From the IMG/VR virus record IMGVR_UViG_3300034082_001974: a DNA stretch of 27,892 nt; one strand, given 5' to 3'. The DNA comes from a virus (taxonomy: Duplodnaviria > Heunggongvirae > Uroviricota > Caudoviricetes). A program made the position numbers and the translations under genes. Shown piece after piece: positions 1-18,398 of the stretch (within the stretch, counting starts at the first letter, position 1; every line of letters begins with the position of its first letter). The notes below the pieces were generated by a model. It was given only the letters and a program-made list of their open reading frames with translations, made no database searches and was not told the DNA's origin.

Positions 1-263
1 CAAGACCATAGAGTTTCATCAGTTTTAAGTGCTACTGTATGAGATTTTCCACTCGCAATAGATTTCCAATTGTTACCACCAAGTAGCGTAGTGACTGGAG
101 TGCTTCTATATGTGGTATCATTTACTCCTAATTGTCCATAAAAATTAAGACCCCAAGACCATAATGCAGGTTGTCTAAAAGTTTCTGCCGGAACAAAGAC
201 ATCATAAAAATTATAAACTACTCCGTTCTCTGTAAAACTATAATTAATATCGTCTGCGGGCAT
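1..263 (-). CDS. RCC1-repeat beta-propeller protein, paralog C (5' part; runs off window edge)
   Basis: Not in the ORF track. My translation from ATG at 263 reads MPADDINYSFTENGVVYNFYDVFVPAETFRQPALWSWGLNFYGQLGVNDTTYRSTPVTTLLGGNNWKSIASGKSHTVALKTDETLWS..., the same 51-aa unit as 3448..4671 and 5343..6521, open to position 1. Confidence 0.9.
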   Translation of the reverse strand, partial: MPADDINYSFTENGVVYNFYDVFVPAETFRQPALWSWGLNFYGQLGVNDTTYRSTPVTTLLGGNNWKSIASGKSHTVALKTDETLWS

Positions 264-273
264 TTTAGGTTCC

Positions 274-627
274 TTACTGTTTTACAAATATTATAGGAGT
301 ATTCATTTTTTGACTCCAGTTTTCAAAATACTCTACTATATTATTATTTATTGATTCTTTAATTGTTTCAATAATTTTGAGATATTGTCCATTCTCATTA
401 TTTTCTACAGAAACTAAAAATCCACACTTATCTGGACGATATTCTTCGTCTATTAATTCTTGAGACCAGGCACAAAAATAATTCTCACAGGATTTTGGTC
501 TTACTTTATGAACATCACATTTATTCTCACATAAAAATCTACAAGACTTTCCATTTCCAAACTCCCATCCATAAGCATCACCAGTCAACCAAGTGCAACA
601 AACAGTGCAACCATTACAGTCTTTCAT
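274..627 (-). CDS. YkgJ/CxxCxxCC-family cysteine-cluster (Zn/Fe-chelating) protein
   Basis: CNGCTVCC, then C-x3-C-x3-C and RPKSC-x4-C; 10 Cys in 117 aa. ATGA overlap with the upstream gene. Confidence 0.75.
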   Translation of the reverse strand: MKDCNGCTVCCTWLTGDAYGWEFGNGKSCRFLCENKCDVHKVRPKSCENYFCAWSQELIDEEYRPDKCGFLVSVENNENGQYLKIIETIKESINNNIVEYFENWSQKMNTPIIFVKQ

Positions 628-1310
628 TCAATATAATCCTCTTCTTTAAAATAATGATTCACTAAATCTATCTCACCATTATGTAGTCTTGAAGAGAAAT
701 TTTCATCCCATACTTTCAAAGATTTTACTTTATATTTTCCACCACTTCCAATCCAGAATTCTCTATCCAGTCTATATCCAGTTTCCAGATACTTATCATT
801 TAGTTTGTTAATATAAGAAGCATTTGCCCACCAGAAGTTTCCAGGATAATGTCCAATATTATCTACATTTTTTGTAATCTCTCCATTCTCCCAAATCGTA
901 TCTCCCAAAATCAACCAAGTCTGCCCCACACAATCATAAGTATTCAAATATTCTACACATTCTTTCCATCTATCAATCACAAAGTATTCCATCATTAATC
1001 TCCAAGATTGTGATTCTAATGTATTTTTAGAAGATCCTTTAGTATGAAAATATAGAATCTTATAGTCTGAATTTTCCTTACAAAAATCTCTTAAAGAAAT
1101 CAAAGTTTCAGTCTCTTCGTTCCAGTTGGTATTTCTTTTAATTACTGCTTTTTCAGGAACATTAAAAAGTTCTTGGTCTCCATTTATCCCAAAATGAATA
1201 TAATCTGATTCTTTAATTAATCCAGAAGCATATAATCTATGCAATTGAGATTGATAAATGAATGCTCCCAATCCTATTTGTGCGATATGATAGAAAATTG
1301 CAATCTTCAT
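624..1310 (-). CDS. Glycosyltransferase-like phage protein
   Basis: 228 aa with ILYFHTKG, WRxMMEYF, YDCVG, HYPGNFWWA and RLDREFWIG motifs that I recognise from viral GT-like proteins. ATGA coupling on both sides. Function inferred. Confidence 0.55.
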   Translation of the reverse strand: MKIAIFYHIAQIGLGAFIYQSQLHRLYASGLIKESDYIHFGINGDQELFNVPEKAVIKRNTNWNEETETLISLRDFCKENSDYKILYFHTKGSSKNTLESQSWRLMMEYFVIDRWKECVEYLNTYDCVGQTWLILGDTIWENGEITKNVDNIGHYPGNFWWANASYINKLNDKYLETGYRLDREFWIGSGGKYKVKSLKVWDENFSSRLHNGEIDLVNHYFKEEDYIE

Positions 1311-2092
1311 ATTGAATAATTTGCGGTCTCCATTCCTTTATTTACATTTAATCCTAGATTTGGAATAGATATAATTCTTTCTTTATTTAAAAATCTATAG
1401 AGTGCGTGTTCAATATCATTTCCTGTAGTATACTGTATCATTTTTTCCAAATATACGAAACTTCTTTCTAATGCTTCTATCGTCTCATTAAATAACATTT
1501 TATCAAAAGACCATAACCCAGTCACCATCATTCCTTCTGCCTGATATAGATAGGCATAAATATTTTCCAAATTATCAGTATTCATACTTTCTATTTCTTT
1601 ATTTAAATAACTATAAGTCTTTGCGATGTAATAGTTTTCTAATAATTTACTTTCATAATCTTTAATTTCAAAATATTCATTTAAAGTATATCTTCCAGTT
1701 AATTTAAAAATTCTAGTTACATCAGTAAAGAGTTGCTTATCTTTCATTAGATACAAACAGTTTAATATACCTCTGGTTTCTAGTAGTGACTTACCAAAAG
1801 TAATGAGTTCTGGTTTTTGTGAGAAATTTTCATAAAGAGTTTCAATTCCAGGTTCATTATAAAATTCTAAAAATAAATCTGATTTCTCCTGAAGAATTGA
1901 TTTATATTCACTTGAGATTGATTTATAAGAACATTCAAATAAACAAATATAAGCATTTGGAACTTTGGTTCTTATGGATTCAATTGTATCTAAAGTTTGA
2001 AAAAATCTTTGCTCTGTATTATAACGACTATAATTCTTTTCGGCAAAATGCTCTAGTGAAGAACCAACTAGAAATAAAAATTTATAATCCAT
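1307..2092 (-). CDS. Putative glycosyltransferase-like protein
   Basis: 261 aa with RFFQTLDTIESIR, ICLFECS and IFKLTGRYTLN motifs; lies in a coupled operon with the TPR-GT gene. Function inferred. Confidence 0.5.
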   Translation of the reverse strand: MDYKFLFLVGSSLEHFAEKNYSRYNTEQRFFQTLDTIESIRTKVPNAYICLFECSYKSISSEYKSILQEKSDLFLEFYNEPGIETLYENFSQKPELITFGKSLLETRGILNCLYLMKDKQLFTDVTRIFKLTGRYTLNEYFEIKDYESKLLENYYIAKTYSYLNKEIESMNTDNLENIYAYLYQAEGMMVTGLWSFDKMLFNETIEALERSFVYLEKMIQYTTGNDIEHALYRFLNKERIISIPNLGLNVNKGMETANYSI

Positions 2093-3422
2093 TTAAAAAC
2101 TCTCTCAATTGTTGTAACGGTGCATCCCAGTTTCTGGGTTTCTTTTGACGAAATAGATGAACATTATCACCATACCACCAAGATTTTCCTGTTGAACTAG
2201 TCCAGGCATAATACTCCATAATAGGAACAAAGACACATACTTCTTTACCCATAGAAGATGCAATATGAGCGATTGATGTGCAAGAAGTAATCACCAAGTC
2301 CATTTGATTTATAATAGAAAAAGTATCAGCAAATTCTCTATTTTTTGAATGAAATTCTTTGATGTTTCTTTTACAAGAATCTGGAACAGGAGTATCACTC
2401 ATTTGTAAGGAATAAAGTGAATATTCAGGTTTGCCTAATACATTAAACAAATTAAAGAAATCTACACTTCTAAAATGTGCCTGTTCAAATCCAGAATCAG
2501 AATTCCAGAACATTCCAATTTTATACTTTGTGTCTTTTTGAATATAAGAATATTGCTTTTCCTTCTCTGGTAATGGATTAAGATATGGTTCTTGACCTAA
2601 ATCTTGCACTGAAAGTTGAAGATAATATGGAAGAGCAAGGGCATAAACCCAACAAGAGTTATCTGGATATTCTGGTTTATCCCAGACACAAACACTTTCA
2701 AAACCATTATAATTGAAAATATCTGCTAAATGTTTTCTAGTGGTTGCCCATATAGGTCTCATTCCAAGTTCTTTCAGGTTCTTCATAAACCGAATATGCA
2801 TAATTTCATCACCAGCACCACAATTCGCATCAATCACAATTGTCTGATTTGGAGTAATTCTACCATTCCATTTTTGAAAAGGCAATTTAATATTCTTATA
2901 TGCAGTCTTTTCTGTTTCTATGAGAAAGTGTTCAAGTGCCTTTGGTAAATCATCTTTATGAAAATAATAACCCGAAAGATTGTGATGAACCTTCTTTTCT
3001 ATTTCCTCTGGTAAATCGTTTCTCTTTGAAAGATTAAAAAGTAACTTATGTGCCTTATCTAATTGTCCAAGTTGTGAATATGATGAGGTTTCTTCAAATA
3101 AAAGTTCTGGGTCATTTGGAGTGATTTTCTTACACTTTTCAATTTGAGTAATTGCTTTCTCTGGATAATTAAATTGATTATAAGCATTAATAAGATTTTT
3201 AGAAGTAATATATTTTTCTTCTGTGGTTGTTGCCTTATGAAGTGTCTTTTCTCCATATTCTATTGCTTTTGGAAGATTTTTAAGTTCAAAGAATATTTTT
3301 GATATTTCATCATATTGTGAAAATAGTTCTGCTCTTTTTCCAAATGCTTCTAATAATTCATAAGTAAGTTGTTTTTCATTAAACGAATATAAGGTTTTGG
3401 AGACCAATTCAAGAGGATTCAT
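2082..3422 (-). CDS. TPR-repeat plus GT-B (GT9-like) glycosyltransferase
   Basis: N-terminal helical TPR-like repeats (KAIEYGEKTL, KAITQIEKCKKITPND, KALEHF), GAGDEIMHIRF, and C-terminal MDLVITSCTSIAHIASSMG...WWY...LFRQ...W signature. Confidence 0.8.
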   Translation of the reverse strand: MNPLELVSKTLYSFNEKQLTYELLEAFGKRAELFSQYDEISKIFFELKNLPKAIEYGEKTLHKATTTEEKYITSKNLINAYNQFNYPEKAITQIEKCKKITPNDPELLFEETSSYSQLGQLDKAHKLLFNLSKRNDLPEEIEKKVHHNLSGYYFHKDDLPKALEHFLIETEKTAYKNIKLPFQKWNGRITPNQTIVIDANCGAGDEIMHIRFMKNLKELGMRPIWATTRKHLADIFNYNGFESVCVWDKPEYPDNSCWVYALALPYYLQLSVQDLGQEPYLNPLPEKEKQYSYIQKDTKYKIGMFWNSDSGFEQAHFRSVDFFNLFNVLGKPEYSLYSLQMSDTPVPDSCKRNIKEFHSKNREFADTFSIINQMDLVITSCTSIAHIASSMGKEVCVFVPIMEYYAWTSSTGKSWWYGDNVHLFRQKKPRNWDAPLQQLREFLNGL

Positions 3423-3444
3423 ATAAAAATAATATATTTAAAAG

Positions 3445-3451
3445 TATTTAG
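3445..3451 (-). promoter_or_regulatory. T4-type late promoter-like CTAAATA overlapping the RCC1-A stop
   Basis: tatttag on + strand, 23 nt upstream of the TPR-GT start. Confidence 0.5.
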
Positions 3452-4671
3452 ATGTAATCTACAGATTGAATTGCTATTGTATGAAAACCTCCACCAGCAA
3501 TAGATGTCCAATTGGTTCCACCAAGTAGTGTGGTGACTGGAGTTCTTCTAGGGGTAAGATCATTTACTCCTAATGCTCCATAACCATTAGCACCCCAAGA
3601 CCATAAAGTTCCATCAGTCTTAAGTGCTATTGTATGATAACCTCCACAAGCAATAGATTTCCAATTGGTTCCACCAAGTAGTGTAGTGACTGGAGTGAAT
3701 TTAGTTGCATTATTATTTACACCTAGTTGTCCAAAATCATTATAACCCCAAGACCATAAAGTTCCATCAGTCTTAAGTGCTATGGTATAAGAAAGCCCAC
3801 CCGCAATAGATTTCCAATTGGTTCCACCAAGTAGTGTAGTGACTGGAGTGCTTCTATTTGTAGTATCATTTACTCCTAGTCGTCCATAAGAATTATAACC
3901 CCAAGACCATAAAGTTCCATCAGTCTTAAGTGCTATTGTATGATAATATCCACCAGCAATAGATTTCCAATTGGTTCCACCAAGTAGTGTAGTGACTGGA
4001 GTGCTTCTATGTGTAGTATCATTTACTCCTAGTTGTCCAAAATTATTACGACCCCAAGACCATAGAGTTCCATCAGTCTTAAGTGCTATGGTATGATAAC
4101 CTCCACAAGCAATAGATTTCCAATTGGTTCCACCAAGTAGTGTGGTGACTGGTGTAAATATACCTGTTCTAGTATCATTTACTCCTAATGCTCCATAATT
4201 ATTAGCACCCCAAGACCATAGAGTTCCATCAGTCTTAAGTGCTATGGTATGATATTGTCCACCCGCAATAGATTTCCAATTGTTACCACCAAGTAGTGTA
4301 GTGACTGGAGTTCTTCTAGTTGTAGGATCATTTGCACCTAATGCTCCATAATCATTATTACCCCAAATCCATAAAGTTCCATCAGTCTTAAGTGCTATGG
4401 TATGATATTGTCCACCATCAATAGATTTCCAATTTGTTCCACCAAGTAGTGTGGTGACTGGAGTGCTTCTATTTGTAGTATTATTTACTCCTAGTTGTCC
4501 ATTAACATTATAACCCCAAGACCATAAGGAAGGAGTAACTGATAATCCAGAATTACCGAGTGAATCTAAAATAGGACCATAGACCTCTAAAAGATAGTCT
4601 TTACTGACTAACTTTTTACCTAAATCTACACCATCACTGTCTTTAAAATTAGTTGTTGGTTGGTAAGGCAT
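3448..4671 (-). CDS. RCC1-repeat seven-bladed beta-propeller protein, paralog A
   Basis: Seven ~51-aa repeats with WG-x-N-x-x-GQLG and HTIALKTDGTLWSWG RCC1 consensus, after a ~48-aa unique leader. Confidence 0.92.
   Translation of the reverse strand: MPYQPTTNFKDSDGVDLGKKLVSKDYLLEVYGPILDSLGNSGLSVTPSLWSWGYNVNGQLGVNNTTNRSTPVTTLLGGTNWKSIDGGQYHTIALKTDGTLWIWGNNDYGALGANDPTTRRTPVTTLLGGNNWKSIAGGQYHTIALKTDGTLWSWGANNYGALGVNDTRTGIFTPVTTLLGGTNWKSIACGGYHTIALKTDGTLWSWGRNNFGQLGVNDTTHRSTPVTTLLGGTNWKSIAGGYYHTIALKTDGTLWSWGYNSYGRLGVNDTTNRSTPVTTLLGGTNWKSIAGGLSYTIALKTDGTLWSWGYNDFGQLGVNNNATKFTPVTTLLGGTNWKSIACGGYHTIALKTDGTLWSWGANGYGALGVNDLTPRRTPVTTLLGGTNWTSIAGGGFHTIAIQSVDYI
3470..4527 (-). repeat. Tandem 153-bp coding repeat x7 (RCC1 paralog A)
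   Basis: Constant blocks such as aatagatttccaatt and ccaccaagtagtgt recur every 153 nt, with one unit of 156 nt. Confidence 0.95.
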
Positions 4672-5326
4672 TAGGTGTCTCTACTATTTGAGGTTCTCTT
4701 AAAATTATATTATAAACTTCTTCACCAGTGGTACAAGCATCAATTTCTTGAAGTTTTTGATACTCCCAATCAAATGCTTCTTGAACTTTTAAATCAATCT
4801 GTGAAATAATATATTCAAGTTCTGTAGTTGTAATTTGCAACCAAACATCATTACCAAATTTAAAGTTATGAGGTCCTGGAGAAGCAATCAATTTACTCAT
4901 ATAAACTAATCTATTCTCACGACTAGTTGAAACTGAAATAGTAGTTCCATTTAGTTCAATTTCAATATTGATATTTTCCTTTTCTTTACGAACTGGGGAT
5001 ACCTGTTGCTTATATTCATATTTGATTGTTTCTAATGCCTTATTATAAACTGGATAAGTCATTTCAACTCTTATTGGAATATTATTTTCTTTTATAATTT
5101 CCCATTCAAAGTTTCCTAGACTCTGATATCTTGAATCGTGTTCTGGAATAATTTGAACTACAGAAAGAAGATAAGTATTCTCATCAATTTGTAGAGGTAT
5201 ATTCTCATAATCTCTTGGAGTAACTTTGCCTTCAACTTCAAGTTCTTCTAGTTCGGCATTAATTAATCGGTAATTATAACCAATTGGTCCTAAAATCAGT
5301 TGAGAATCGTGAATAAGTGAGTACAT
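4649..5326 (-). CDS. DUF4376-like tail-associated protein
   Basis: 225 aa; C-half pattern (VRKEKE...VSTSRENR...FKF...W..IT..EL..I...I...VQEAFDWE......ID) resembles DUF4376 proteins found beside phage fibres. 23-bp overlap with RCC1 paralog A. Confidence 0.55.
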   Translation of the reverse strand: MYSLIHDSQLILGPIGYNYRLINAELEELEVEGKVTPRDYENIPLQIDENTYLLSVVQIIPEHDSRYQSLGNFEWEIIKENNIPIRVEMTYPVYNKALETIKYEYKQQVSPVRKEKENINIEIELNGTTISVSTSRENRLVYMSKLIASPGPHNFKFGNDVWLQITTTELEYIISQIDLKVQEAFDWEYQKLQEIDACTTGEEVYNIILREPQIVETPNALPTNN

Positions 5327-5339
5327 ATTGTTTTATAAT

Positions 5340-5346
5340 TATTTAG
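5340..5346 (-). promoter_or_regulatory. Late promoter-like CTAAATA overlapping the RCC1-B stop
   Basis: tatttag, 14 nt upstream of the DUF4376-like start. Confidence 0.5.
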
Positions 5347-6521
5347 GAGAAATCTACTGACTGTCCTGCTGTGAGTGCTACTGTATAATAAGATCCACCA
5401 GCAATAGATTTCCAATTGTTACCACCAAGTAGTGTAGTGACTGGAGTGCTTCTATATGTAGTATCATTCACTCCTAGTTGACCATTACCATTATACCCCC
5501 AAGACCATAAAGTTCCATCAGTCTTAAGTGCTACCGTATGAACACCTCCACCAGCAATAGATTTCCAATTATTACCACCAAGTAGTGTAGTGACTGGAGT
5601 GCTTCTATTTGTAGTATCATTTACTCCTAGTTGTACAGAAGTATTAAGACCCCAAGACCATAGAGTTCCATCAGTCTTAAGTGCTATGGTATGATAAGAT
5701 CCACAATCAATAGATTTCCAATTGTTACCACCAAGTAGTGTAGTGACTGGAGTGCTTCTAAATGTAGTATCATTTACACCTAATGGTCCAAAATTATTAC
5801 TACCCCAAGTCCATAGAGTTCCATCAGTTTTGAGTGCTACCGTATAATAAAGCCCACCAGCAATAGATTTCCAATTGGTTCCACCAAGTAGTGTGGTGAC
5901 TGGAGTGCTTCTAGTTGTAGTATCATTTACACCTAATTGTCCATTATTATTATAACCCCAAGTCCATAGAGTTCCATCAGTCTTGAGTGCTACTGTATGA
6001 TAATATCCACCAGCAATAGATTTCCAATTGGTTCCACCAAGTAGTGTAGTGACTGGAGTGCTTCTATGTGTAGTATCATTTACACCTAATGCTCCATAAG
6101 TATTACGACCCCAAGACCATAAAGTTCCATCAGTCTTAAGTGCTATGGTATGAAAACCTCCACCCGCAATAGATTTCCAATTGTTACCACCAAGTAGTGT
6201 AGTGACTGGAGTGCTTCTATGTGTAGTATCATTTACACCTAATGGTCCAAAATTATTATAACCCCAAGTCCATAGAGTTCCATCAGTTTTGAGTGCTACC
6301 GTATGAACACCTCCACCCGCAATAGATTTCCAATTATTACCACCAAGTAGTGTAGTGACTGGAGTGCTTCTAAATGTAGTATCATTTACACCTAATTGTC
6401 CATTATTATTATAACCCCAAGACCATAAGGTATCGCCGATATATTGGTCTATTAACTTATAATCAGTTATAAAATAATCTTCAATATCTCCAAATTGGTC
6501 AGATAAAAATTGATTAGGCAT
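5343..6521 (-). CDS. RCC1-repeat seven-bladed beta-propeller protein, paralog B
   Basis: Seven 51-aa RCC1 repeats after a ~31-aa unique leader; AGGAG Shine-Dalgarno in the 3' end of the upstream fibre gene. Confidence 0.92.
   Translation of the reverse strand: MPNQFLSDQFGDIEDYFITDYKLIDQYIGDTLWSWGYNNNGQLGVNDTTFRSTPVTTLLGGNNWKSIAGGGVHTVALKTDGTLWTWGYNNFGPLGVNDTTHRSTPVTTLLGGNNWKSIAGGGFHTIALKTDGTLWSWGRNTYGALGVNDTTHRSTPVTTLLGGTNWKSIAGGYYHTVALKTDGTLWTWGYNNNGQLGVNDTTTRSTPVTTLLGGTNWKSIAGGLYYTVALKTDGTLWTWGSNNFGPLGVNDTTFRSTPVTTLLGGNNWKSIDCGSYHTIALKTDGTLWSWGLNTSVQLGVNDTTNRSTPVTTLLGGNNWKSIAGGGVHTVALKTDGTLWSWGYNGNGQLGVNDTTYRSTPVTTLLGGNNWKSIAGGSYYTVALTAGQSVDFS
5375..6428 (-). repeat. Tandem 153-bp coding repeat x7 (RCC1 paralog B)
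   Basis: Same unit as in paralog A and at 1..164. Confidence 0.95.
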
Positions 6522-8015
6522 TTAGATTCTCCTCTCTAATTCTTCAATACGAAGTTGTTGTTCTTTAATTGCCTCAATCAATACTCCTATAAGATTTCCA
6601 TAAGATACTGATTTTGTTCCATCATCATTAGTCTCAACAACTTCTGGAATAATTTTTTCAATATCTTGAGCAATTACACCAATTGAAGGTTTATCATTAT
6701 GCTTCCAATCAAATCTTACTCCATTAAGTTGTTTAGTGAGTTCAAGTGCATTCTTAATAGGTTCAATATTAGTTTTTCTAGATACATCTGAAAGTGAAGT
6801 GAACTGTGTTGCTGATACGGTTCCTGTTGATGTAGTAAAGGTAAGTGCGGTAGATGAGGTATAAGCAGTTGAATATGTTCCAACAGTTGTAGCACTCATT
6901 GTTGGATATAAAGTTCCAGATGGAGTATTATTGAGTGTTGCGCCACCACTAAATGTTGTCCATCCAATTCCAGTTACAGTTGATTGAAGAACCTGACCTG
7001 TAGTTCCTGATGAATTTGTTGAGTCATAAATTGACCTTCCAATTCCCACATCACCAATTATAGAAAGAGTTCTTGTTGGATTTGTGGTTCCTACTCCAAT
7101 ATTACCACCATAAGCACCTAAAGAAATTACTCCACTTGCATCTACATCAATACTTGGAATACCTGAAATATCATTTACAGAGAAGAGGCTTCCAGTTGAT
7201 AGATTATTTGTAATTGAGAATAATTGACCCGCACTACCTTCCCAAGATAAGGTGCCGGAGTTTAGAGTATCATAAGGAACAATATCAATTATAGTACCAA
7301 TTCCAAGTGTACCAGTTGAAGGATTGAATTGGAGTTTTGTTGAAGAAACGTGAGCAGTTTTGGCAATTCCTGATGTGACCGAAAGAATTCCAACATACCA
7401 GTTTGAATTTGTTGTGGTGTTATCAAATACAGTAAATCCACCATCACTAGAACCTTGAACTCCTTGAACTCCTTGAGCACCTTGGACTCCTTGGGCACCC
7501 TGAACTCCTTGAGCACCTTGGACTCCTTGGGCACCCTGAACTCCTTGAGCACCTTGGACTCCTTGAGCACCTTGGACTCCTTGGGCACCCTGAACTCCTT
7601 GAGCACCTACAATTCCTTGAGCACCCTGGACTCCCTGAAGTGCAGCAGTTGCAATTGGTATCCAACTGACTCCAATACCAGTGGAAATTAATACAGAACT
7701 TGCAGTACCTACTTGATTATTACTATCCTTTAATCCCCCAGCAATTTTGATATAACTATCAGTCTGCCCTAATGATACTGTTTTATTAGTAAGACCTCGT
7801 ATTTCTCCACTCTGTTCAAAAACAATATCTACGTTATTAACACCATCACCAATAAAAATATCACGACTTGTATCACCAAGAGTTAAATCTCCACCCGGAT
7901 TTGCGATGTTGAGATTTCCATTATCATCCAACTGAATAGTCGCACTACTAATGCCGGTATTTCCTTGAAAATCTACTAGACCCGATGCGGGTGTTATGAT
8001 TACATCTTTTGGCAT
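6522..8015 (-). CDS. Collagen-like tail fibre with C-terminal peptidase S74 intramolecular chaperone
   Basis: About 20 G-X-Q triplets, VGIGTTNP fibre motifs, and SDVSRKTNIEPI...NGVRFDWK...IGVIAQDIE...LIEAIKEQQ. The true start is probably ATG 8015 (MPKD, 497 aa), one base after the upstream TAA and behind a GGAGG/GGAG motif, rather than 8036. Confidence 0.88.
   Translation of the reverse strand: MPKDVIITPASGLVDFQGNTGISSATIQLDDNGNLNIANPGGDLTLGDTSRDIFIGDGVNNVDIVFEQSGEIRGLTNKTVSLGQTDSYIKIAGGLKDSNNQVGTASSVLISTGIGVSWIPIATAALQGVQGAQGIVGAQGVQGAQGVQGAQGVQGAQGVQGAQGVQGAQGVQGAQGVQGAQGVQGVQGSSDGGFTVFDNTTTNSNWYVGILSVTSGIAKTAHVSSTKLQFNPSTGTLGIGTIIDIVPYDTLNSGTLSWEGSAGQLFSITNNLSTGSLFSVNDISGIPSIDVDASGVISLGAYGGNIGVGTTNPTRTLSIIGDVGIGRSIYDSTNSSGTTGQVLQSTVTGIGWTTFSGGATLNNTPSGTLYPTMSATTVGTYSTAYTSSTALTFTTSTGTVSATQFTSLSDVSRKTNIEPIKNALELTKQLNGVRFDWKHNDKPSIGVIAQDIEKIIPEVVETNDDGTKSVSYGNLIGVLIEAIKEQQLRIEELERRI
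7452..7637 (-). repeat. 9/18-bp collagen repeat (GAQGVQ)n
   Basis: ccttgagcac/cctggactc-type units in frame; about 20 triplets. Confidence 0.95.
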
Positions 8016-8016
8016 T

Positions 8017-10476
8017 TTAGAAAACTCCCCCTCCAAGTCTTATTTTTCTTTCTGATAGAGAACTTCCAACATTAACAAGTGCTGAATTAGTTTGACTACC
8101 ATTTATTGTGGCAAATGCTTGAACGGCGTATGGTTTATCTAATAAAACAGTAATATTTTTCATCCAGCATCCCTCAGAAGAAGTGGCTGAATCTACATGA
8201 ACACCTATATTTATATAACGAGAAAATGCCACTGGAGCAATTGTCAATTCTTTTGTTTCATAAGCACTTGTTGCAGCAGCACTAAACCGAACTGCTTCAT
8301 TGCCACCAGCCATCCAAGTGCTGTTTTGACCACCAGAATTTGCTAACTGATTTGGTCCAACTCCAGATATTACATTTCTTTGTTCAAATATTGGATAAGT
8401 TCCAGAAAATCCTGGCGCCAATTTGATTTGTGCTTTTGCTCTTACAGTAACTCCTGCTGGAACAAAAACTGATTCAAACCAACCACTTCCATAATCAGAA
8501 CCATCTGCAATCCAATAAACTCTCCAAGCATCTTCGGCAGAATCCCAAAATCTTACAGAAAGATAAGTTTGTTGATAGATAGCATCATATTCCATATTAT
8601 GTTCAATAACACTTCCAGATGCACCATTATGTCCTCTATCAATATGCCCACCATGAAAACTTCCTCTAACCTGCAGATTATTGGCAGCAGGAGAATAACC
8701 ACTAACAAACTCAAATATAGAATATATTAGAGTGTTATTATTGTATGGATCCATTTCCATACCTCGTCTGTTTCCCGTATGTTTATGTTTATAGTATCCT
8801 CTATAAAAACCACTAACAAAATTAAGGTAGTCGGTTCCATTAGAAATGTAGTGATGAATCCCAACATTACCATCATAGAAGTGAAATCTACCTGCCCTAG
8901 TTGAACGAGAAATATAAACATAACCAACTTCTGCCCATTCACTTGATCCCTCCAATCTACATCCCCATGCTTCACTAGCAACTCCTATACTATTATAAAG
9001 ACATAGACCCTCACGATACCATAAAGCATATGAAACGTTGAATCTACCTTGAACATGGCAACATCTTATCTGATCATATCTACCATAAATCCAAAATCCC
9101 CCCAAATCTCTAGTAGAGTTTGAACCTGTCATTACAATTCCTTCTAACCAACTATTCTGACTGTGTGCTGGAATAGTATTTGTTAAAGTAACAGGCAAAC
9201 TCACATTAGATTTCCAAGTACCGGGTCCAAGATATAATCCCCCTTCTGCTTGCCCTTGACTGCTGCCCGCATACTTCAAATATACATCTTTAAAAATTAT
9301 TGCTCTGGAGTAATTGGTGCCACCTGCTTCAATATACACTCCATAATAGTCTGTGTTTGGAGTAACTGGTTCAATAACTACATCTCGTGTTAAACGATTG
9401 ACTAATGCACCAGAAACTACATTATAACCAACGGCAGCAGTAAGTGTAATAATACTTCCAGAAACAGATGAAATTGTGTGTTTATATCTTGGTCCGGGTG
9501 TTTCATTTCCATACGCACTTTGGGCATAGTCAGTTGATCCTCCTGCCTCACTTCTGGCTTCAATCCAAATATCATCATTTGCAACAAACATATTGGCATT
9601 TGCTACAGTAATTGTTGTTGATGCTGCAAGAGAAGAAACAGTAGTAACAGTAGCACACTTTCTCACTTTGTTATTAATAGTGTGAATCTTATCGGAACCA
9701 GTTTCATAAACAGTTAATCCCGTAACAGTACCAGTAACAGAACCTGATAGTGTCAGTGTGTGGTTGAGATAATTAATTGCACTAATAGTATGAATATTAC
9801 GATTTGCACCAGTACCAAAGATAATTATTTGACCAACACGGAATACTTTTGAATTAACAACAACTAAACTTGTTCCAGAAGCAGAAACAACTGTAGATTC
9901 TGGTCCAACAAACTGTCTAAAATAAACTGTATTAGAATCAATATCGTGAATCCAAAACCCCTCATCTCTTAATGTAGATGCTCCTGCATTTGATGCTTGA
10001 GTGGTTGTATTATCAAATATAGCAAACCATTCTCCCACTGCAAAATTTGTAGCAGAAGTAAAAGCAAAACTTGTTGCTCGTTCATTTGCACCAGATGAAA
10101 GAGTGGTGGTTGGCATACCATCACTACCTTCCATAATAACGCTTGCGCCAGTTTCTCCTTGTCCATAAAGGATATGAGAAGCAGCAGCAGTTCCTCTAAA
10201 TTGTAACTTATGTCCTGCTCTTGCGTGATAAGTTCCATTAGTTCTTATTCTTAATCTTCCATTCATTCTCAAGGTGGTTCCTGCACCAACTTGAGTTTGT
10301 AAAGTTCCATAGACATCACTATCATCAAAACCGTTTGTGACTGGTGTTGAGACATTATAAGTGACTGTATGTCCAGTTGCAATTACAAAACTATCAGCAT
10401 CAACAGGTGCTACTCCACCAACCCAAGTTGCTCCTGCTGAAAAATTACCAGTTGTAGTAGATGTAATAACTGCCAT
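8017..10476 (-). CDS. Large virion protein: G8-like N-terminus, beta-rich/beta-helix-like middle, jelly-roll-like C-terminus (possible tailspike/depolymerase)
   Basis: Begins TSTTTGNFSAGATWVGGVAP...FVIATGHTVTY, typical of G8-like starts; Gly/aromatic beta-strand-rich 819 aa; sits between fibre genes. Fold assignments are inferred. Confidence 0.6.
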   Translation of the reverse strand: MAVITSTTTGNFSAGATWVGGVAPVDADSFVIATGHTVTYNVSTPVTNGFDDSDVYGTLQTQVGAGTTLRMNGRLRIRTNGTYHARAGHKLQFRGTAAASHILYGQGETGASVIMEGSDGMPTTTLSSGANERATSFAFTSATNFAVGEWFAIFDNTTTQASNAGASTLRDEGFWIHDIDSNTVYFRQFVGPESTVVSASGTSLVVVNSKVFRVGQIIIFGTGANRNIHTISAINYLNHTLTLSGSVTGTVTGLTVYETGSDKIHTINNKVRKCATVTTVSSLAASTTITVANANMFVANDDIWIEARSEAGGSTDYAQSAYGNETPGPRYKHTISSVSGSIITLTAAVGYNVVSGALVNRLTRDVVIEPVTPNTDYYGVYIEAGGTNYSRAIIFKDVYLKYAGSSQGQAEGGLYLGPGTWKSNVSLPVTLTNTIPAHSQNSWLEGIVMTGSNSTRDLGGFWIYGRYDQIRCCHVQGRFNVSYALWYREGLCLYNSIGVASEAWGCRLEGSSEWAEVGYVYISRSTRAGRFHFYDGNVGIHHYISNGTDYLNFVSGFYRGYYKHKHTGNRRGMEMDPYNNNTLIYSIFEFVSGYSPAANNLQVRGSFHGGHIDRGHNGASGSVIEHNMEYDAIYQQTYLSVRFWDSAEDAWRVYWIADGSDYGSGWFESVFVPAGVTVRAKAQIKLAPGFSGTYPIFEQRNVISGVGPNQLANSGGQNSTWMAGGNEAVRFSAAATSAYETKELTIAPVAFSRYINIGVHVDSATSSEGCWMKNITVLLDKPYAVQAFATINGSQTNSALVNVGSSLSERKIRLGGGVF

Positions 10477-10634
10477 TATGGTGTTGTGCTAAGGTATGGA
10501 TAATTAACTTCTGGTTCTGGAATACTGATTTCAAGTTCAATCATATTCTCATCTTCTCTTATGTAGTTTATTACACAAGGTTCATCCGCAGTTGCTTCAA
10601 GTGTATTCTTATTAATTGTTATTTTGGTAATCAT
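10476..10634 (-). CDS. Small acidic hypothetical protein (52 aa), absent from ORF track
   Basis: [52 protein letters not shown]; exactly fills the gap, with TAATG stop/start overlaps at both 10634 and 10476. Confidence 0.8.
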   Translation of the reverse strand: MITKITINKNTLEATADEPCVINYIREDENMIELEISIPEPEVNYPYLSTTP

Positions 10635-13600
10635 TAGAATTCAACCTCTAGTTTTGCTACATCCTTTCTTTCTGCAAATATTGTGTAGTAATAATTCAGT
10701 TCACCCTCTTCTTTAGAGAATATTTCCACAGTATTATTTATTACTCTATTTACTCTTGGTGTTGCACTCTCACCGATTGGAGTGAGATTGACTGTAATTG
10801 TTTCTGCATCAACTAATCCAGTCCAATAATCTGGAAGTTCTATAATAGAACTTTGAGTTCTTCCTCTCACGTAAACACCAAGTTCCGGTCCTTCTAACGA
10901 ACCATACTGAAGTTTCTTACCTTCTTTTGTTGGGTGGTCGATAATGAAGGACTTTGTGGTTGCACCGAAGGAACCGACAACGTGAAGTTTGTATTGAGGA
11001 TTTGTGGTTCCTATGCCGACATTACCTGTTGTTCCTTTAACTAGAATTCCAAGTGATTGATCAGTAAATCCATTTGCTGGTTGAATTCTTATATCACCAA
11101 TATCATTTCTAATTGTTACATTATTTGCCCCACCATCTGTCGTTCTTCCAGAAGAATTAAGGAAAAAGTAAACGCCACCGCCACTTGAAACAAGTTTTAA
11201 TCCAACATAAGATGCTGCACCACTATTTGGATTATTAAATTCACTGAAATGAGAAGCGTTCTGATTTTTAAAAACTACAAGACTGTCACCTGGATTTGTT
11301 ATTCCAACTCCAAGATTACCAGAAACATAAGCACCACCAGTGACTTGAAGTCTTTGTGATGCGGTTCCTGTTGATGTTGCTGCTCCTACAAAAACATTAG
11401 CAGAACTTAAAGTATTAGTAGAAGCATTAAAGGCAAATGCTTGTGCAGTACTTCTTGCCTTTGCTGTTTGATTACTTCCAGTTCCAGCAACCATAACAGG
11501 ATAAAGTGTTGTGGTTGAAGTATCATCAGTAGCATTAATAGTTGTGGATGGTCCCCCAGCACCCTGGACTCCTTGAGCACCTTGAACTCCTTGAGCACCT
11601 TGAACTCCTTGAGCACCTTGAACTCCTTGAGCACCCTGGACTCCTTGAGCACCTTGAGCACCTACATTACCAGTTCTTGAAAATTCTACTACTAATGTAG
11701 TTCCATTTGTTGGTAAAGAACCCGAAATGTGTGTTACTGGAATCTTAAAATAACCAGCAGCAGCAGTAACAGCACCAGTAACATTCCATACATTAACAAT
11801 TGTTCCTACTGAAGATGCTGAAGTTATGTAAATATAACCTTTTTGAGTATTTGTAGAATCATCCCAAGTATCATACCAAGTGGTTTGAACATTTGAGTTT
11901 GAATCATTATTATCAATAAAAATTTGAGATACACTTCCTATAGTGGCATTATTATAAGCAATAACACCATTACCTGGATCTGCATCTGTAGTAGTGGTAT
12001 TAAATGTATAAGGTACTCCACCTCTATTTCCTACAACTCCTTGAGCACCCTGGACTCCTTGAGCACCCTGGACTCCTTGAGCACCTTGAACACCTTGGGC
12101 ACCCTGGAATCCTTGAGCACCTTGAACACCTTGAGCACCTTGTGCTCCTTGACGACCTTGTGCACCTTGAGCACCTACATCACCTTGTCTTCCTTGAGCA
12201 CCCTGGAATCCTTGAGCACCCTGGAATCCTTGAGCACCCTGGACTCCTTGAGCACCTTGGACTCCTTGAGCACCTTGGAATCCTTGAGCACCCTGGACAC
12301 CTTGAGAACCTGTTGCACCTTGGATTCCTTGAGCACCCTGAACTCCTTGAGCACCTTGTGCACCTTGAGCACCTTGAGCACCTGTAGCACCCTGGATTCC
12401 TTGTGCTCCCTGAACTCCTTGAGCACCTTGAGCACCTTGAACACCTTGAGCACCTTGAGGACCTTGTAGTGCTGCTGTTGCTATTGATTCCCACTTAACA
12501 CCAGAACCAGTAGAAAGTAATACAGAACTTGCAGTACCTACTTGATTATTAGAATCATAAAGACCAGCACGAAGTCTTATATCTCCATTTACATCAAGTT
12601 GTCTTGTTGCATTTGTGGTTCCAATACCAACAGAACCGGAAACATAAGCGCCGCCAGATACTTGTAAATTTTGTGAAGAAGTTCCTGTTGTTATTGAAGT
12701 TCCAACAACAACAACACCTTTACTCGGACTTAAAAAAGTATTACCATCATTTAAATTAATTATTATAGAATTATGTTCTATAGTAGTTCCTATAGACCTA
12801 CCCTTTACTACAAATGAATTGCCATCACCAAATCCACCGGGTCTAGTATCTAATCTAAAAATACCTCCAACTCGCCCGGTTTCAATACCTATTATTTGTG
12901 ATACATTAATTCCATAAGATAAAATTTCACCATTTACTTCTGTAAATAAAGCAGACGTAATTGTCCCAAGTCCACTAAAAATAATGCCACCATCTGTTGA
13001 TGGAGTTCCTTCAGTAATATCTCCTATTTTTATATCACAGTCAGTATCTAAGATATGAAGTCTTGATGTTGGATTTGTGGTTCCAATGCCAACTCTTTGA
13101 TTTACCGCATCATATACAAAGTTAGTTGCGCCGGCAGATACATTATTATTGTTAAAAATAACTTGAGAGTTGGAACCTGCTATTGGTCCTATGAGACCTT
13201 GAGCACCCTGGATTCCTTGTGCTCCCTGAACTCCTTGAGCACCCTGAGCACCTTGAACACCCTGGACACCTTGAGCACCTTGAGCACCCTGCACACCCTG
13301 GAATCCTTGTGCACCCTGAACACCCTGGAAACCCTGAGTACCTACTGCACCTTGAACTCCTTGTGCACCTTGAGCACCAACAGCACCTTGAATACCTTGA
13401 GCACCCTGAATGCCTTGAGCACCTTGTACACCTTGAGAACCTGTTGCACCTTGTGCTCCCTGGACTCCTTGAGCACCCTGGAATCCTTGAGCACCTTGAG
13501 CACCTTGGACTCCTTGAACTCCTTGAGCACCTTGAACTCCTTGTGCTCCCTGGACTCCTTGAGCACCCTGGAATCCTTGTGCACCTTGGACTCCTTGAGC

Positions 13601-15886
13601 ACCTTGGGCACCTTGACGACCTTGGGCACCTTGAGGACCTTGCAATGCTATTTGTTGAATATTTGCCCAAGAAACACCAGCACCAGTAGAAATAAGAACT
13701 GAAGACGCAGTACCTACATTATTATAAATGTCCCTTAATGTAGAATTCAATTCAATAGGACTCTCAAAAACAAAGTTTCCAGAACCATCAATTTGTGCTC
13801 TTACTGCCGCATTAGTAACATCAACAAAACGAAGATTTGGTGTTGAAGTATTACCATAAACATCGAGATACCAAGCAGTTGCATTATCAGTTGCTCTACC
13901 AAAACTTAACTGACCACCTTCATTAGATGCATCAACTCTACCTGCCTTGATTTCTCCACCAACAACATCAAGTTTAATTCCTGCTGCTGGATTTGCTGTT
14001 CCTATACCAACACTCTGATTTACTGCATCATATACAAAGTTAGTGGCACCTGCAGAAACATTATTGTTGTTAAAGATGATTTGTTTATTAGTACCAGCAA
14101 TTGGTCCCGTTAAACCTTGAGCACCTTGAGCACCCTGGACTCCTTGAGCACCCTGGAATCCTTGAGCACCTTGAGCACCCTGGACTCCTTGAGCACCCTG
14201 GACTCCTTGAGCACCTTGAGCACCTTGAGCACCTTGAGCACCTTGAGCACCCTGAACACCTTGAACACCTTGGGCACCCTGGAATCCTTGAGCACCTTGA
14301 ACACCTTGAGCACCTTGTGCTCCTTGACGACCTTGTGCACCTTGAGCACCTACATCACCTTGTCTTCCTTGAGCACCCTGGAATCCTTGAGCACCCTGGA
14401 CTCCTTGAGCACCTTGGACTCCTTGAGCACCTTGAGCACCCTGGACTCCTTGAGCACCTTGAGCACCCTGGACTCCTTGAGCACCTTGAACTCCTTGAGC
14501 ACCTTGAACTCCTTGAGCACCTTGAACTCCTTGAGCACCTTGAACTCCTTGAGCACCTTGAGCACCTTGACGACCTTGTGCACCTTGAACTCCTTGAACA
14601 CCCTGAAGTGCGGCATTCTGTATTGTTGCCTTTCCTACAACAGTTCCACTTACATCATAAAGTGCAATAAAGTCACCACTTTGAGGGTCTGTAACGGTAG
14701 GTAATCCATTAATATCAAGACTTGTGGCAGTTCCAATAAATCTAGAAGCCGTGATTTGAGTATCAGTAACGTGAACTCCACCAACTGCCAAACGAACTCC
14801 ATTTGGTACTTGAGTGCTTCCAATACCAACACCATAGTTGAATAGCCAGGCATCAGTAGTACCGGCACCTAAAGTACCACCTTTAATCCACATAATTTGC
14901 TTATATGTGGAAGAAATACTATCAATACCAACAATATTAATATTAATTAATGGAGTGCCTTCGGTAGAAGCAATTGCAATACCACCGTGATTTGCCGTAG
15001 TATCAGTAGAAACATCCTGACCAAAGGCATTTGTTGTAAATCCTAATATAATATCTTTATCTTTAACAACTAGTTCATTAACAGAAATAAATGCCGTAGT
15101 ACCACCAACAGTTATATTTCCAGTAACATTTAGATTTGAATTAATATTGGTAGCACCATTAACAGTGAGACCAGTAAATGTAGGAATATCAGTTAGTGTG
15201 ATTGTCGCACCAACTCCAGATGCCGTTGCAGTTAGATTTCCACTTACAAAGTTGATTGAAGAAACTGAATTTGCACCACCTACAACAGAACCTTCTTCAC
15301 GAATTGTAATACCAGTAATTGCACCAGCAGAAGCAGCAGCAACCCAAGTAGGAGCAGCACCAACTCCATTTGATTGAAGAACAAATCCAGATGTACCGTT
15401 TGCTAAGAATACAGTACTATCAGATGCAGATTGATAAGGTATATTACCAACAACACCACCTTTTAGATTAGTTGCTATACCAGCATTAGAAACATAATCA
15501 GCAATTGTGATAGTTGCCCCAGCACCAGATGCCGTTGCAGTTACATTTGGTCCTACAAAGTTAACAGAATTAACACTATCTGTAGTTCCTACAACAGAAC
15601 CTTCTTCACGAATTGTAATACCAGTAATTGCACCAGCAGAAGCAGCAGCAACCCAATCTACTCCAGAACCAGTTGATGCAAGAACTTGTCCGGGTGCTCC
15701 AGATTCATTATCCTTGTCAAAGAGAGAACCACGAAGTCTAATACCACCATTTACATCTAAGTTTGTTGTTGCATTTGTGGTTCCAATACCAACCTTACCA
15801 GTAACCTCTAATACTGTTTGATTTTCAGTATAAGAATTAATACCAATTTTTAAATTTTGTTGACGATTACTGATATACTTTGTCAT
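10634..15886 (-). CDS. Very long collagen-like tail fibre (1750 aa)
   Basis: Four G-X-Q blocks separated by VGIGTT-containing beta modules. C-terminal [29 protein letters not shown]...LPDYW..LV....TVNLTPIG domain is typical of T4-like fibre ends. Confidence 0.9.
11552..14605 (-). repeat. Four G-X-Q collagen blocks (approx. 11552-11671, 12022-12466, 13175-13642, 14098-14605)
   Basis: In-frame 9-bp degenerate repeats of roughly 13, 49, 52 and 56 triplets. Confidence 0.95.
12082..12225. repeat. 144-bp exact direct repeat, second copy at 14257..14400
   Basis: Base-by-base identity including the distinctive GRQGDVG codons (cctacatcaccttgtcttcc). Confidence 0.85.
15279..15347. repeat. 69-bp exact direct repeat, second copy at 15588..15656
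   Basis: cctacaacagaaccttcttcacgaattgtaataccagtaattgcaccagcagaagcagcagcaacccaa occurs twice, 309 nt apart. Confidence 0.85.
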
Positions 15887-15897
15887 TTGATTTTGAA

Positions 15898-16239
15898 TTA
15901 GTTAAGAGTTTCTAGAATACTTCCAACAAATTTTAAATTTGTACCATTATTACCTGATAATACTAATTTATCACCACTTTCAAGAACTAATTTACCAGCA
16001 AGAAGATTTGCAGTATCATTTCCAGAAATTGGATAATTCTTTAACATTTCTGTTGTGACTGCAATTCCAGCAACACTTCTTTGATGTGATAATGAAACAT
16101 CATAAGAAGTTGCTCCAATATTTGCGACTTGTGCTAAAAGAACTACACCCGTATAACCTACTGGTGCCGAATAAACAATTGTTGGACTTGTAGATATCAC
16201 CGCTGTAACCGTCTGAAATACATTGAGTGCTAATGCCAT
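15898..16239 (-). CDS. Conserved small virion-associated protein (cyanomyovirus-like)
   Basis: 113 aa, [12 protein letters not shown]...[19 protein letters not shown]...GKLVLESGD; GGAGG Shine-Dalgarno inside the end of the upstream gene. Confidence 0.7.
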
Positions 16240-16243
16240 TTGA

Positions 16244-18106: not shown

Positions 18107-18133
18107 TATTTACATAGTTGGTATGAACCGTAA

Positions 18134-18151
18134 AACTCTTATATAAGAGTT
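18134..18151. other. Perfect 18-bp intergenic palindrome AACTCTTATATAAGAGTT
   Basis: Self-complementary; lies between a late-promoter motif and the 620-aa gene start. Confidence 0.6.
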
Positions 18152-18157
18152 ATTAAT

Positions 18158-18164
18158 TATTTAT
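18158..18164 (-). promoter_or_regulatory. Late promoter-like ATAAATA overlapping a stop codon
   Basis: tatttat, upstream of the 620-aa gene. Confidence 0.5.
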
Positions 18165-18349
18165 GAAAACTCTTCTTCCACTTTTGTTCCTCTTTTAGGT
18201 TTTCTTAATTTCTCAAGTTCAACACTCAAAGTATCTACAGTTTTTCGTAAACTATTGACTTGAGTTTCTAGCACAATATTTTTTGTAAATAACTCAAATG
18301 CTTTTTGTTGATAAGTACTAATAATATCTTTATAATCTTCTTCAGTCAT
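18161..18349 (-). CDS. Small coiled-coil protein
   Basis: MTEEDYKDIISTYQQKAFELFTKNIVLETQVNSLRKTVDTL... heptad pattern; ATG 18349 preferred over GTG 18361. Confidence 0.7.
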   Translation of the reverse strand: MTEEDYKDIISTYQQKAFELFTKNIVLETQVNSLRKTVDTLSVELEKLRKPKRGTKVEEEFS

Positions 18350-18375
18350 AAAAAAATACACCCAGTTCCAGAGTG

Positions 18376-18382: not shown

Positions 18383-18398
18383 GAGTTATTAGTTGAGT

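Follow-up and report, generated by a model that had tools for sequence, protein, structure and literature searches.

What is the function, in a tailed phage, of three proteins of the RCC1 type (regulator of chromosome condensation) whose repeat units are nearly the same down to the codon and differ from one another in a handful of residues each? The question is raised by the 27,892-nucleotide stretch of DNA in the IMG/VR record IMGVR_UViG_3300034082_001974, hereafter called the window, which contains two such genes and the beginning of a third (RCC1-C, RCC1-B and RCC1-A). Comparison of its open reading frame (ORF) products with Pfam, PHROG and protein collections identifies the source as a T4-like cyanomyovirus (Kyanoviridae) and the window as its tail-fibre region, with every long ORF encoded by the minus strand. 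The nearest cultured relative is the freshwater Synechococcus phage S-SRM01. No near-identical DNA was found in cultured phages, and 24 metagenome runs of lake water, dating from 2020 and 2024, contain the window DNA. Little is understood of how T4-like cyanophages recognise their hosts, and many genes of their fibre regions remain unassigned. We describe with high confidence a set of 21 propeller blades that undergo concerted evolution, are under diversifying selection on one face and recombine with each other. As to their function, we give about even odds (a probability of roughly 0.5) to the reading that the three proteins are soluble seven-bladed propellers serving as diversifying binding modules of the phage particle, in the manner of accessory receptor-binding proteins or adhesins.

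Repeat units and their hypervariable codons

The three genes are located as follows.

3..263, minus strand: RCC1-A, N-terminal 87 residues (33-residue leader, blade 1 and the beginning of blade 2); the gene continues past the window start; ortholog of S-SRM01 gp344
3448..4671, minus strand: RCC1-B, 407 residues (48-residue leader and seven blades); RLD match with E 7e-90; ortholog of S-SRM01 gp337 by its leader
5343..6521, minus strand: RCC1-C, 392 residues (31-residue leader, seven 51-residue blades and a short tail); RLD match with E 1.7e-137; ortholog of S-SRM01 gp335

The window holds 15 RCC1 units of 51 residues, one in A and seven each in B and C, and the whole genome holds 21, since the full-length RCC1-A known from public assemblies (P0057) has 390 residues and seven units, with DNA that is identical over the window part in contig L071. 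The units of RCC1-B begin at residues 49, 100, 151, 203, 254, 305 and 356, the third of them having one extra residue (52), and those of RCC1-C at residues 32, 83, 134, 185, 236, 287 and 338, where residue r corresponds to window bases 6521-3(r-1) down to 6519-3(r-1). Unit parsing was anchored on the motif LWxWG, and the 51 columns are numbered from the L of LWSWG. All three proteins pass the Pfam cut-offs for RCC1/RCC1_2, and B and C also pass that for RLD (PF25390; 302 bits for B and 459 for C, with a cut-off of 150). PF00415 scores 265 bits for B and 250 bits for C (cut-off 21.7), in seven stretches each, and both proteins match phrog_4219 with E-values of 1e-53 to 2.5e-55. No Pfam domains other than RCC1 types are found in A, B and C, and only a leader of 31-48 residues precedes the repeats. 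By sequence and fold, these proteins are bona fide RCC1-like domains (PF00415, PF13540, PF25390). Ran guanine-nucleotide exchange or chromatin binding is not expected in a phage of a bacterium, and the phage annotation 'regulator of chromosome condensation' is inherited from the repeat model only.

Arrays of near-identical repeats are prone to mis-assembly (PMC12222747), and mis-joined blade orders are possible in principle in a short-read metagenome assembly such as the one from which the window derives. Against such mis-joining, protein C is letter-identical on 21 contigs and protein A on 17. Two variants of RCC1-A (P0059 and P0067) differ from it, one by a single Gly-to-Pro change and the other by an eight-residue patch that resembles a short out-of-frame stretch; these differences may be either real variants or repeat-assembly errors.

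The DNA of the units is 78-93% identical in pairwise comparisons. Their scaffold is invariant or nearly so, often down to the codon, as is most evident for the segments TPVTTLLGG and NWKSI. High entropy is confined to columns 6, 8, 9 and 11 (in WG-x-N-x-x-G-x), 19 (in TT-x-R) and 40 and 41 (in G-x-x-H), which in RCC1-C are the residues at +5, +7, +8, +10, +18, +39 and +40 from each unit start, and milder variation is seen at columns 3, 16-18, 20-21, 31, 37-38, 42 and 44. A first-pass annotation of the window, made from the letters alone, had placed 15 units of 51 residues in three genes and had proposed a scaffold nearly invariant at the DNA level with differences concentrated in three short patches. 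Its coordinates and unit count proved right (apart from the 52-residue unit of B), and the amino-acid entropy peaks exactly in the three patches it had named.

That the loops are not merely variable but diversified, as the same annotation had inferred, is borne out by the pattern of substitutions. A Nei-Gojobori comparison of all pairs of window units gives proportions of non-synonymous and synonymous differences (pN and pS) of 0.51 and 0.055 at the seven hypervariable columns (omega about 14.6), as opposed to 0.009 and 0.20 at the core columns (omega 0.04). For all 21 units and a set of six columns taken, to avoid circularity, from those that vary in other genomes, omega is 11.6, compared with 0.3 for the remaining columns. 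The individual codon positions behave differently. Extra alleles at positions 1, 2 and 3 number 13, 17 and 2 in the hypervariable columns and 3, 3 and 12 in the core, so that third-position alleles per column are about equally frequent in both (0.29 versus 0.35), whereas positions 1 and 2 of the hypervariable codons reach 1.9-2.4. The first two bases thus change six to eight times more often than the third, which changes at the neutral rate, and they span all four letters while the third base is frozen, being T at columns 6, 8, 9 and 41 and A at column 11 without exception in the 21 units. Codon usage can be ruled out as the cause of this bias because the codon choice differs from that of the core: codons for four-fold-type residues end in T in 32 of 33 hypervariable cases but in only 156 of 408 core cases (Fisher p 6e-12), and arginine is encoded by CGT or CGA at hypervariable sites and by AGA in the core.

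These observations bear on the notion that there is no adaptive diversification at all, with unconstrained loops next to a scaffold held by gene conversion and purifying selection, such that the contrast between them would be a by-product. Gene conversion is clearly active and lowers the apparent synonymous divergence (dS) of the scaffold, and the hypervariable sites look saturated between genomes, with non-synonymous divergence (dN) close to the dS of neighbouring genes. However, no conversion tract can homogenise only the third base of a codon and pass over the first two, so that selection for replacement, or against homogenisation, is needed to explain the different rates of the codon positions. 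Moreover, the hypervariable signatures of all 21 units are distinct despite ongoing homogenisation, and the same columns vary in independent phage lineages, in which codons of the NNY type (Y, C or T) recur as well (for example, T at column 6 in 30 of 30 units at the related locus L010). We therefore consider this explanation improbable. Among the hypervariable residues of the 21 units, Tyr (23%), Asn, Phe, Ser and Gly are frequent.

Predicted fold, concerted evolution and blade exchange

An AlphaFold2 model of RCC1-C, built on a 53-sequence alignment, has a predicted local distance difference test score (pLDDT) of 90.7 and a predicted template modelling score (pTM) of 0.88 and comprises 28 strands, corresponding to seven four-stranded blades, with the first strand pairing with the last blade to close the ring between the N and C termini. 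Its best matches among solved structures in a Foldseek search are UVR8, followed by HERC2, HERC1 and RCC1 (template modelling (TM) score 0.82-0.91 over UVR8, HERC2 and RCC1), with UVR8 (4dnw and others) reaching TM scores of 0.83-0.88 at 31-33% identity. The DSSP assignment of the model divides a unit into strands C (LWSWG), D (RSTPVT), A (WKSIAG) and B (HT(I/V)ALK). Hypervariable positions directly follow strand C, immediately precede strand D (one residue) or make up the A-B turn (two residues), and, since the C-D and A-B loops share one face of the beta-meander, they are predicted to lie on one face. The opposite face of the model is formed by the invariant D-A (TLLGGxN) and B-C (TDGT) loops. 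The leader of RCC1-C enters strand C of the last blade and its tail exits from strand B of that blade, so that, judging from the topology, both termini should be situated on the invariant face.

The alignment with UVR8 leads to the same arrangement. Column 6 corresponds to W94, column 8 to D96, column 19 to D107 and columns 40 and 41 to W285 and R286 of the GWRHT motif, the numbering having been fixed by the two positions that differ in the D96N/D107N mutant entry 6xzl. In UVR8, R286 pairs with D96 and D107 across the dimer interface (PMC5091643). The residues aligned to the three patches thus jointly form a protein-protein interface on one face, to which the patches of the phage proteins would correspond. 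In the model, 7 x 7 hypervariable residues (six to seven per blade) pave one face of the ring, and the suggestion of the first-pass annotation that the variable sites form a single face agrees with both the strand topology and the UVR8 interface.

Beside column 19, on the variable face, every window unit carries an N-x-S/T motif (VNDT, columns 15-17) after the GxLG turn. Such motifs follow GxLG in 53% of 848 related units, compared with 26% after shuffling. As a family-wide rule, the motif was rejected, because it is found in only 0-14% of the units at some loci.

The scaffold, in turn, is specific to each phage. S-SRM01 contains three RCC1 proteins, which are the orthologs of C, B and A according to their distinct N-terminal leaders and are encoded in the order fibre gene (annotated as distal subunit), RCC1, hypothetical protein, RCC1, tetratricopeptide repeat (TPR) protein, several more genes and RCC1. 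The leaders show that the three paralogs are older than the split between the window phage and S-SRM01. Nevertheless, each window unit is nearer to all other window units than to any unit of S-SRM01, which has FAGG, KQV, AAIK and LGDNTT in its scaffold where the window has LLGG, KSI, ALK and LGVNDT. Core identity is 0.886 within the window and 0.70 within S-SRM01, as opposed to 0.615 between the two, with the between-genome maximum (0.74) staying below the minimum within the window (0.77). At the hypervariable columns, orthologous and non-orthologous blades of the two phages are equally dissimilar (identity 0.20 in both cases). Furthermore, 126 of the 210 informative site pairs in the window units fail the four-gamete test, with a failure rate of 44% even for sites within 10 nucleotides, indicating that the units are mosaics. 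The homogenised scaffold postulated by the first-pass annotation hence reflects concerted evolution across three paralogs.

This behaviour is widespread. At least 7,845 RCC1 homologs were found in a protein search at E < 1e-30. Among 65 related IMG/VR loci, most have two to four RCC1 paralogs, and some have 14-unit double propellers or giants of 27-45 units. The scaffold differs from locus to locus, identity is about as high between genes as within them, and the same positions vary. The giant proteins, with 2445-5712 residues and 27-45 RCC1 units, are chains of several propellers (L050:1812-10322, L057:450-17585, L008:664-7998).

Closer relatives reveal how the blades change. The best match in IMG/VR is 62% identical, and closer orthologs (73-80%) come from a large protein collection. 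They include a clade of C orthologs with 390-402 residues that share 73-80% identity as well as the same leader, tail and scaffold. In the syntenic contigs L067 and L069, whose genes neighbouring RCC1-C are 68-85% identical to those of the window, the core of the C orthologs is 94-96% identical (dN 0.02-0.03, dS 0.6-0.76), identity at the 49 hypervariable codons is 18-27% (dN 0.87-1.07), and the neighbour genes have a dN of 0.09-0.24 and a dS of 0.8-1.5. The scaffold is therefore far more conserved than ordinary genes in this part of the genome, and saturation has been reached at the hypervariable sites. Seven C orthologs that align without gaps show an entropy of 1.6-2.2 bits at columns 6, 8, 9, 19, 40 and 41, about 0 in the core and 0.2-0.33 at the termini. 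Different loops are thus mounted on the same scaffold in related lake phages, in line with the variable family that the first-pass annotation had proposed. In one case, the register is shifted by a blade, with blades 1-5 of P0046 matching blades 2-6 of P0062 and P0068 (85-98%), although the termini are identical and each protein has seven blades. In another, P0062 and P0068 are 100% identical in blades 3 and 4 and 72-87% identical in blades 1, 6 and 7, and P0058 and P0064 behave alike. Such shifts and replacements among near relatives are as expected from unequal crossing-over and conversion between like units.

Gene neighbourhood and candidate roles

The RCC1 genes are surrounded by the following genes.

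6522..8036, minus strand: tail fibre, 504 residues, with collagen-like Gly-X-Y repeats and a C-terminal Peptidase_S74 domain, an intramolecular chaperone (PF13884 E 3.6e-15, Collagen E 2.1e-9; many tail-fibre PHROGs)
4649..5326, minus strand: DUF4376-family protein, 225 residues, between RCC1-C and RCC1-B, in a position conserved in all close relatives
274..3422, minus strand: four genes between RCC1-B and RCC1-A, outside the propeller family, for a TPR protein of 446 residues and for proteins of 261, 228 and 117 residues, one of them Cys-rich; syntenic in S-SRM01 and in L067 and L069 (68-85% identical to the latter two)

The RCC1 and fibre genes in 1..11000 form one tight gene train without any minus-strand terminator-like site; the T4-type late promoter motif TATAAATA has two matches, compared with 3.5 expected, and none upstream of the RCC1 genes. 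The stop of the 504-residue fibre gene abuts the start codon of RCC1-C, and the S74 fibre gene ends at or overlaps this start in the window, L067 and L069, the overlap being 8 nucleotides in the relatives. On the other side, the start of RCC1-B and the end of the DUF4376-family gene overlap by 23 nucleotides. The order S74 fibre, RCC1, DUF4376, RCC1, TPR is conserved in the window, S-SRM01, L067 and L069, so that RCC1-C has a fibre gene directly upstream and a DUF4376-family gene directly downstream. The claim that the propeller genes are sited among tail fibres thus stands on Pfam, PHROG and synteny evidence alike.

The assignment of the 225-residue protein relies on its relatives. Its own match to PF14301 has an E-value of 0.13, but 8 of 10 aligned homologs match this family (best E 4.2e-11), and an Atlas feature search links it to DUF4376 clusters with a score of 0.96. 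In the Alteromonas phages V22 and A5, a DUF4376 protein is encoded by the gene that follows the one for the receptor-binding protein (RBP), and experiments have shown these proteins to be tail-fibre chaperones (PMC7289586, PMC10579305); by analogy, the window protein is a candidate fibre or RBP chaperone. A complex prediction for RCC1-C and this protein gave a score of 0.00, with a mark of 0.32, and speaks neither for nor against binding.

Several further products of the window are fibre-like.

within the window, minus strand: collagen-like fibre, 1750 residues
within the window, minus strand: 620-residue protein with 70% identity to its S-SRM01 counterpart, a baseplate or fibre protein, and 57% to the one in P-SSM2
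15898..16239, minus strand: 113-residue product matching phrog_1276, which also matches the N terminus of an RCC1 fusion protein at locus L037
20714..21049, minus strand: 111-residue product matching phrog_3304 (L-shaped tail fibre assembly)

Tail-fibre PHROGs are matched by the products of 6522..8036 and 10634..15886. The collagen-like Gly-X-Y DNA of the genes for the 504- and 1750-residue fibres is near-identical, and metagenome contigs join the two (at 7677 and 11600-11621, with a step back of 3945); this shared repeat DNA is likely a recombination substrate or a source of assembly errors. Between two fibre genes lies an 819-residue protein (8017..10476, minus strand) without a Pfam or PHROG match at the thresholds used. 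The TPR protein (2082..3422, minus strand) has an unassigned C-terminal half of 250 residues, and the three small proteins encoded in 274..2092 (minus strand) include a Cys-rich one (phrog_9155).

The presence of RCC1 proteins in phage particles has precedents. In E. coli phage W70, three tandem phrog_4219 RCC1 proteins (W70_237-239) were detected in the virion by mass spectrometry, phage GAP32 has a separate RCC1-type protein in its virion (GAP_001), and 121Q and PBECO4 carry RCC1 arrays (PMC11370258, PMC5259590). In other phages, the propeller is physically joined to fibre parts. At L008, a collagen-like fibre segment is followed by at least 27 RCC1 units, and gp88 of Pseudomonas phage Littlefix (1365 residues), whose gene adjoins a tail-fibre gene, has an RCC1-like domain at 945-1339. 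A T7 tail-fibre N-terminal domain is named by UniProt for the PollyC protein. The N-terminal parts of long RCC1 fusions mostly lack a PHROG match; those with one are at L008 (collagen-like fibre), L059 (weak fibre) and L037 (phrog_1276).

On this basis, we suggest that the propellers are diversifying binding modules of the particle and that their variable faces probably recognise the host. Gene conversion and unequal crossing-over, acting in each of the three genes as well as between them, maintain the similarity of the 21 blades, and the hypervariable codons are under selection for amino-acid replacement. In related phages, replacement affects entire blades or short patches, or the register is shifted by one blade. 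Leader and tail may anchor the ring to a conserved site of the virion, leaving the variable face to point outward and bind variable ligands of the host surface, be they glycans or proteins. Three differently 'printed' propellers per genome could then widen or hedge host recognition, and the DUF4376 protein encoded between C and B might aid their maturation or attachment.

Several points weigh against this interpretation. The RCC1 proteins known from virions belong to other phages and are no more than distant relatives of A, B and C, and the paper on S-SRM01 makes no mention of its three RCC1 orthologs. The S74 fibre is swapped between relatives that are otherwise 70-85% identical, having 504 residues in the window, 268 in L067 (L067:9202-10008) and 398 in L069 (L069:8812-10008) at 25-31% identity, with the junction to RCC1-C kept. 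The RCC1-C leader is 81-90% identical between the same phages, so that the propeller is probably not docked on the shaft of that fibre. Its docking site, if any, is, as judged from these sequences, something more conserved. In addition, the evidence for positive selection rests on a comparison within one genome, complicated by gene conversion, because the hypervariable dN between genomes is saturated and about equal to the dS of the neighbours. The blade order is derived from short-read assemblies of near-identical repeats. Finally, the cluster to which the RCC1 genes belong encodes putative modification enzymes, a setting that allows other roles.

Of the other functions that could be envisaged, the one that best withstands the evidence, unlikely as it appears to us, is that of intracellular effectors, whose variable face would bind and block variable host proteins, such as defence or takeover targets, without being part of the virion. 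The bacterial RCC1-like propeller BLIP-II binds beta-lactamases, and a single Tyr/Asn-rich variable face under positive selection fits any binder involved in an arms race. A, B and C are proteins of 390-407 residues without a signal peptide or a fibre-type domain, and the virion evidence for them is indirect. Points against an effector are the location of the genes in a fibre gene train, their translational coupling to the S74 fibre gene and the gene for the DUF4376 chaperone-family protein, the occurrence of homologous RCC1 proteins in virions and the fusion of the propeller to fibre segments in relatives.

A role as carriers or partners of the neighbouring modification enzymes is less probable still. 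Sugars would then be placed on Thr/Asn-rich loops, and the variability would be that of a tolerated or glycan-shielded surface. In support of this idea, the TPR gene and then, beyond gene A, sulfotransferase, glycosyltransferase and methyltransferase genes (L071, L067) flank and separate the RCC1 genes, also in relatives, and the N-x-S/T motif after GxLG is twice as frequent as after shuffling. Yet the motif is not universal, and a glycosyltransferase fold is shown for none of the four genes between B and A. Tolerance alone also cannot explain why codon positions 1 and 2 change so much faster than the third.

The remaining question is how the hypervariable codons are written. No reverse transcriptase (PF00078) was found in the complete genome of S-SRM01 or in five IMG/VR contigs of relatives, which include one with a completeness of 100%, and none was matched among the 30 window products scanned (with Pfam for 1..10476 and two other products, and with PHROGs for 274..26359). 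The changes also lack a preference for adenine. Columns 7, 15 and 33 have AAT in every unit, and many other adenines never change either, whereas non-A bases change at columns 11 (CAA, GCA, CGA, CCA) and 42 (CAT, TAT), with changes of C or G at columns 11, 42 and 44. In addition, the unique flanks are identical over kilobases in contigs from four metagenome runs, two from 2020 and two from 2024, and the same holds for the unique repeat pieces shown. As the unique parts of 1..12000 are 100% identical in the runs X1 and X2 (2024) and X13 and X18 (2020), the genotype is persistent. The metagenome contigs (Logan) end within the repeats, and many of the fragments match at two positions, so that rare loop variants cannot be judged from them. 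The few differing letters, at 5915-5948 (one run, at the phage's own depth) and at 6072 (one contig of another run), could be misplaced pieces of paralogous blades.

Given that no reverse transcriptase was found in the relatives or among the window products scanned, the lack of adenine specificity and the unchanged unique flanks, diversification takes place in the germline and over evolutionary time, by point substitution and homologous recombination rather than by mutagenesis of the type known from diversity-generating retroelements (DGRs) or the variable lymphocyte receptors (VLRs) of lampreys. Targeted, DGR-like conversion of AAY to NNY codons, suggested by the NNT codons, whose first two positions take any of the four bases and whose third is an unvarying T at four columns, and by the NNY pattern of other phages, is very hard to reconcile with these findings and with the facts that no template-like copy was noticed and that the targets would be 21 separate units instead of one C-terminal variable region. 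The analogy to VLRs drawn by the first-pass annotation accordingly holds in one half only: a constant repeat scaffold with a variable face is present, but no somatic or within-population diversification is seen.

Comparison with known systems

We found no description of the hypervariable-face pattern in phage RCC1 proteins in the open-access literature. The RCC1 sets of the large myoviruses W70, GAP32, 121Q and PBECO4 resemble that of the window phage in being clustered, single-propeller paralogs of about 40 kDa that belong to phrog_4219. However, sets of the W70/GAP32 type have been named after RCC1, with a guessed role in DNA encapsidation, and neither a hypervariable face nor homogenisation or a linkage to fibre and DUF4376 genes has been described for them (PMC11370258, PMC5259590). 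Our results offer a functional reading for many phage genes labelled 'regulator of chromosome condensation'. With the modules of the Alteromonas phages V22 and A5, the locus shares a DUF4376 gene immediately downstream of a (putative) host-recognition gene in a recombination-prone module (PMC7289586, PMC10579305), although the RBP of these phages is a trimeric fibre and not a propeller.

Arabidopsis UVR8 is a seven-bladed RCC1-type propeller of the same size, and the hypervariable columns of the phage proteins coincide with the residues of its dimer interface. Unlike the phage units, its blades are mutually divergent and its interface is conserved (GWRHT triad); the Trp triad is absent from the phage proteins. 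DGR targets and lamprey VLRs likewise have a constant scaffold with a few variable residues that form a binding surface, the DGR codons being of the stop-free NNY type and the variable residues of VLRs lining one face of a repeat protein. The phage locus differs from both in that its diversity is of germline origin, and it appears to lack the defining features of a DGR, as neither a reverse transcriptase with a template repeat nor adenine-restricted variation was found in the sequences searched.

The closest analogue in logic is provided by the WD40 sensors, with repeats of 'high internal conservation', of fungal NOD-like receptors (NLRs), the HNWD, HET-E and HET-D proteins of Podospora anserina (PMC12222747). 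The repeats of HNWD sensors are more than 80% identical owing to concerted evolution, and four hypervariable codons per repeat are under diversifying selection and form an interaction surface (PMC12222747). Similarly, the phage propellers have homogenised repeats with few hypervariable codons, predicted by topology and UVR8 homology to lie on one face (omega 11.6-14.6), and they exchange sequence within and between paralogs and undergo register changes. By contrast, the number of repeats changes in HNWD proteins, whereas the number of blades is fixed at seven in the phage RCC1 clade. Moreover, the phage proteins are of the RCC1 and not the WD40 type, and they are stand-alone, phage-borne proteins of 390-407 residues and not cellular immune receptors. 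As no effector and NACHT or NB-ARC domains precede the repeats, A, B and C work like members of the HNWD family without belonging to it.

In a more far-reaching and tentative version of our proposal, against which we see the odds as leaning, the 21 blades constitute a germline cassette pool. Recombination within and between the genes and with co-infecting relatives, together with selection on the six to seven stop-free NNY codons per blade, would give rise to a self-renewing repertoire of three 49-residue faces that set or hedge host range, as a widespread viral counterpart of the HNWD and VLR logic that is independent of reverse transcriptase. In any case, the locus represents a sharply defined candidate, since the presumed ligand-contact residues can be read from the sequence (seven per blade and 49 per protein), and the cultured phage S-SRM01 carries the orthologous RCC1 trio. 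These proteins may also be of interest as binder scaffolds, since they amount to natural libraries built on one stable framework whose variable face is known. Collectively, our findings suggest that phages have, on the RCC1 fold and without the help of a retroelement, evolved the combination of a constant repeat scaffold and a selected hypervariable face that fungal NLR sensors display and that designed repeat binders exploit.

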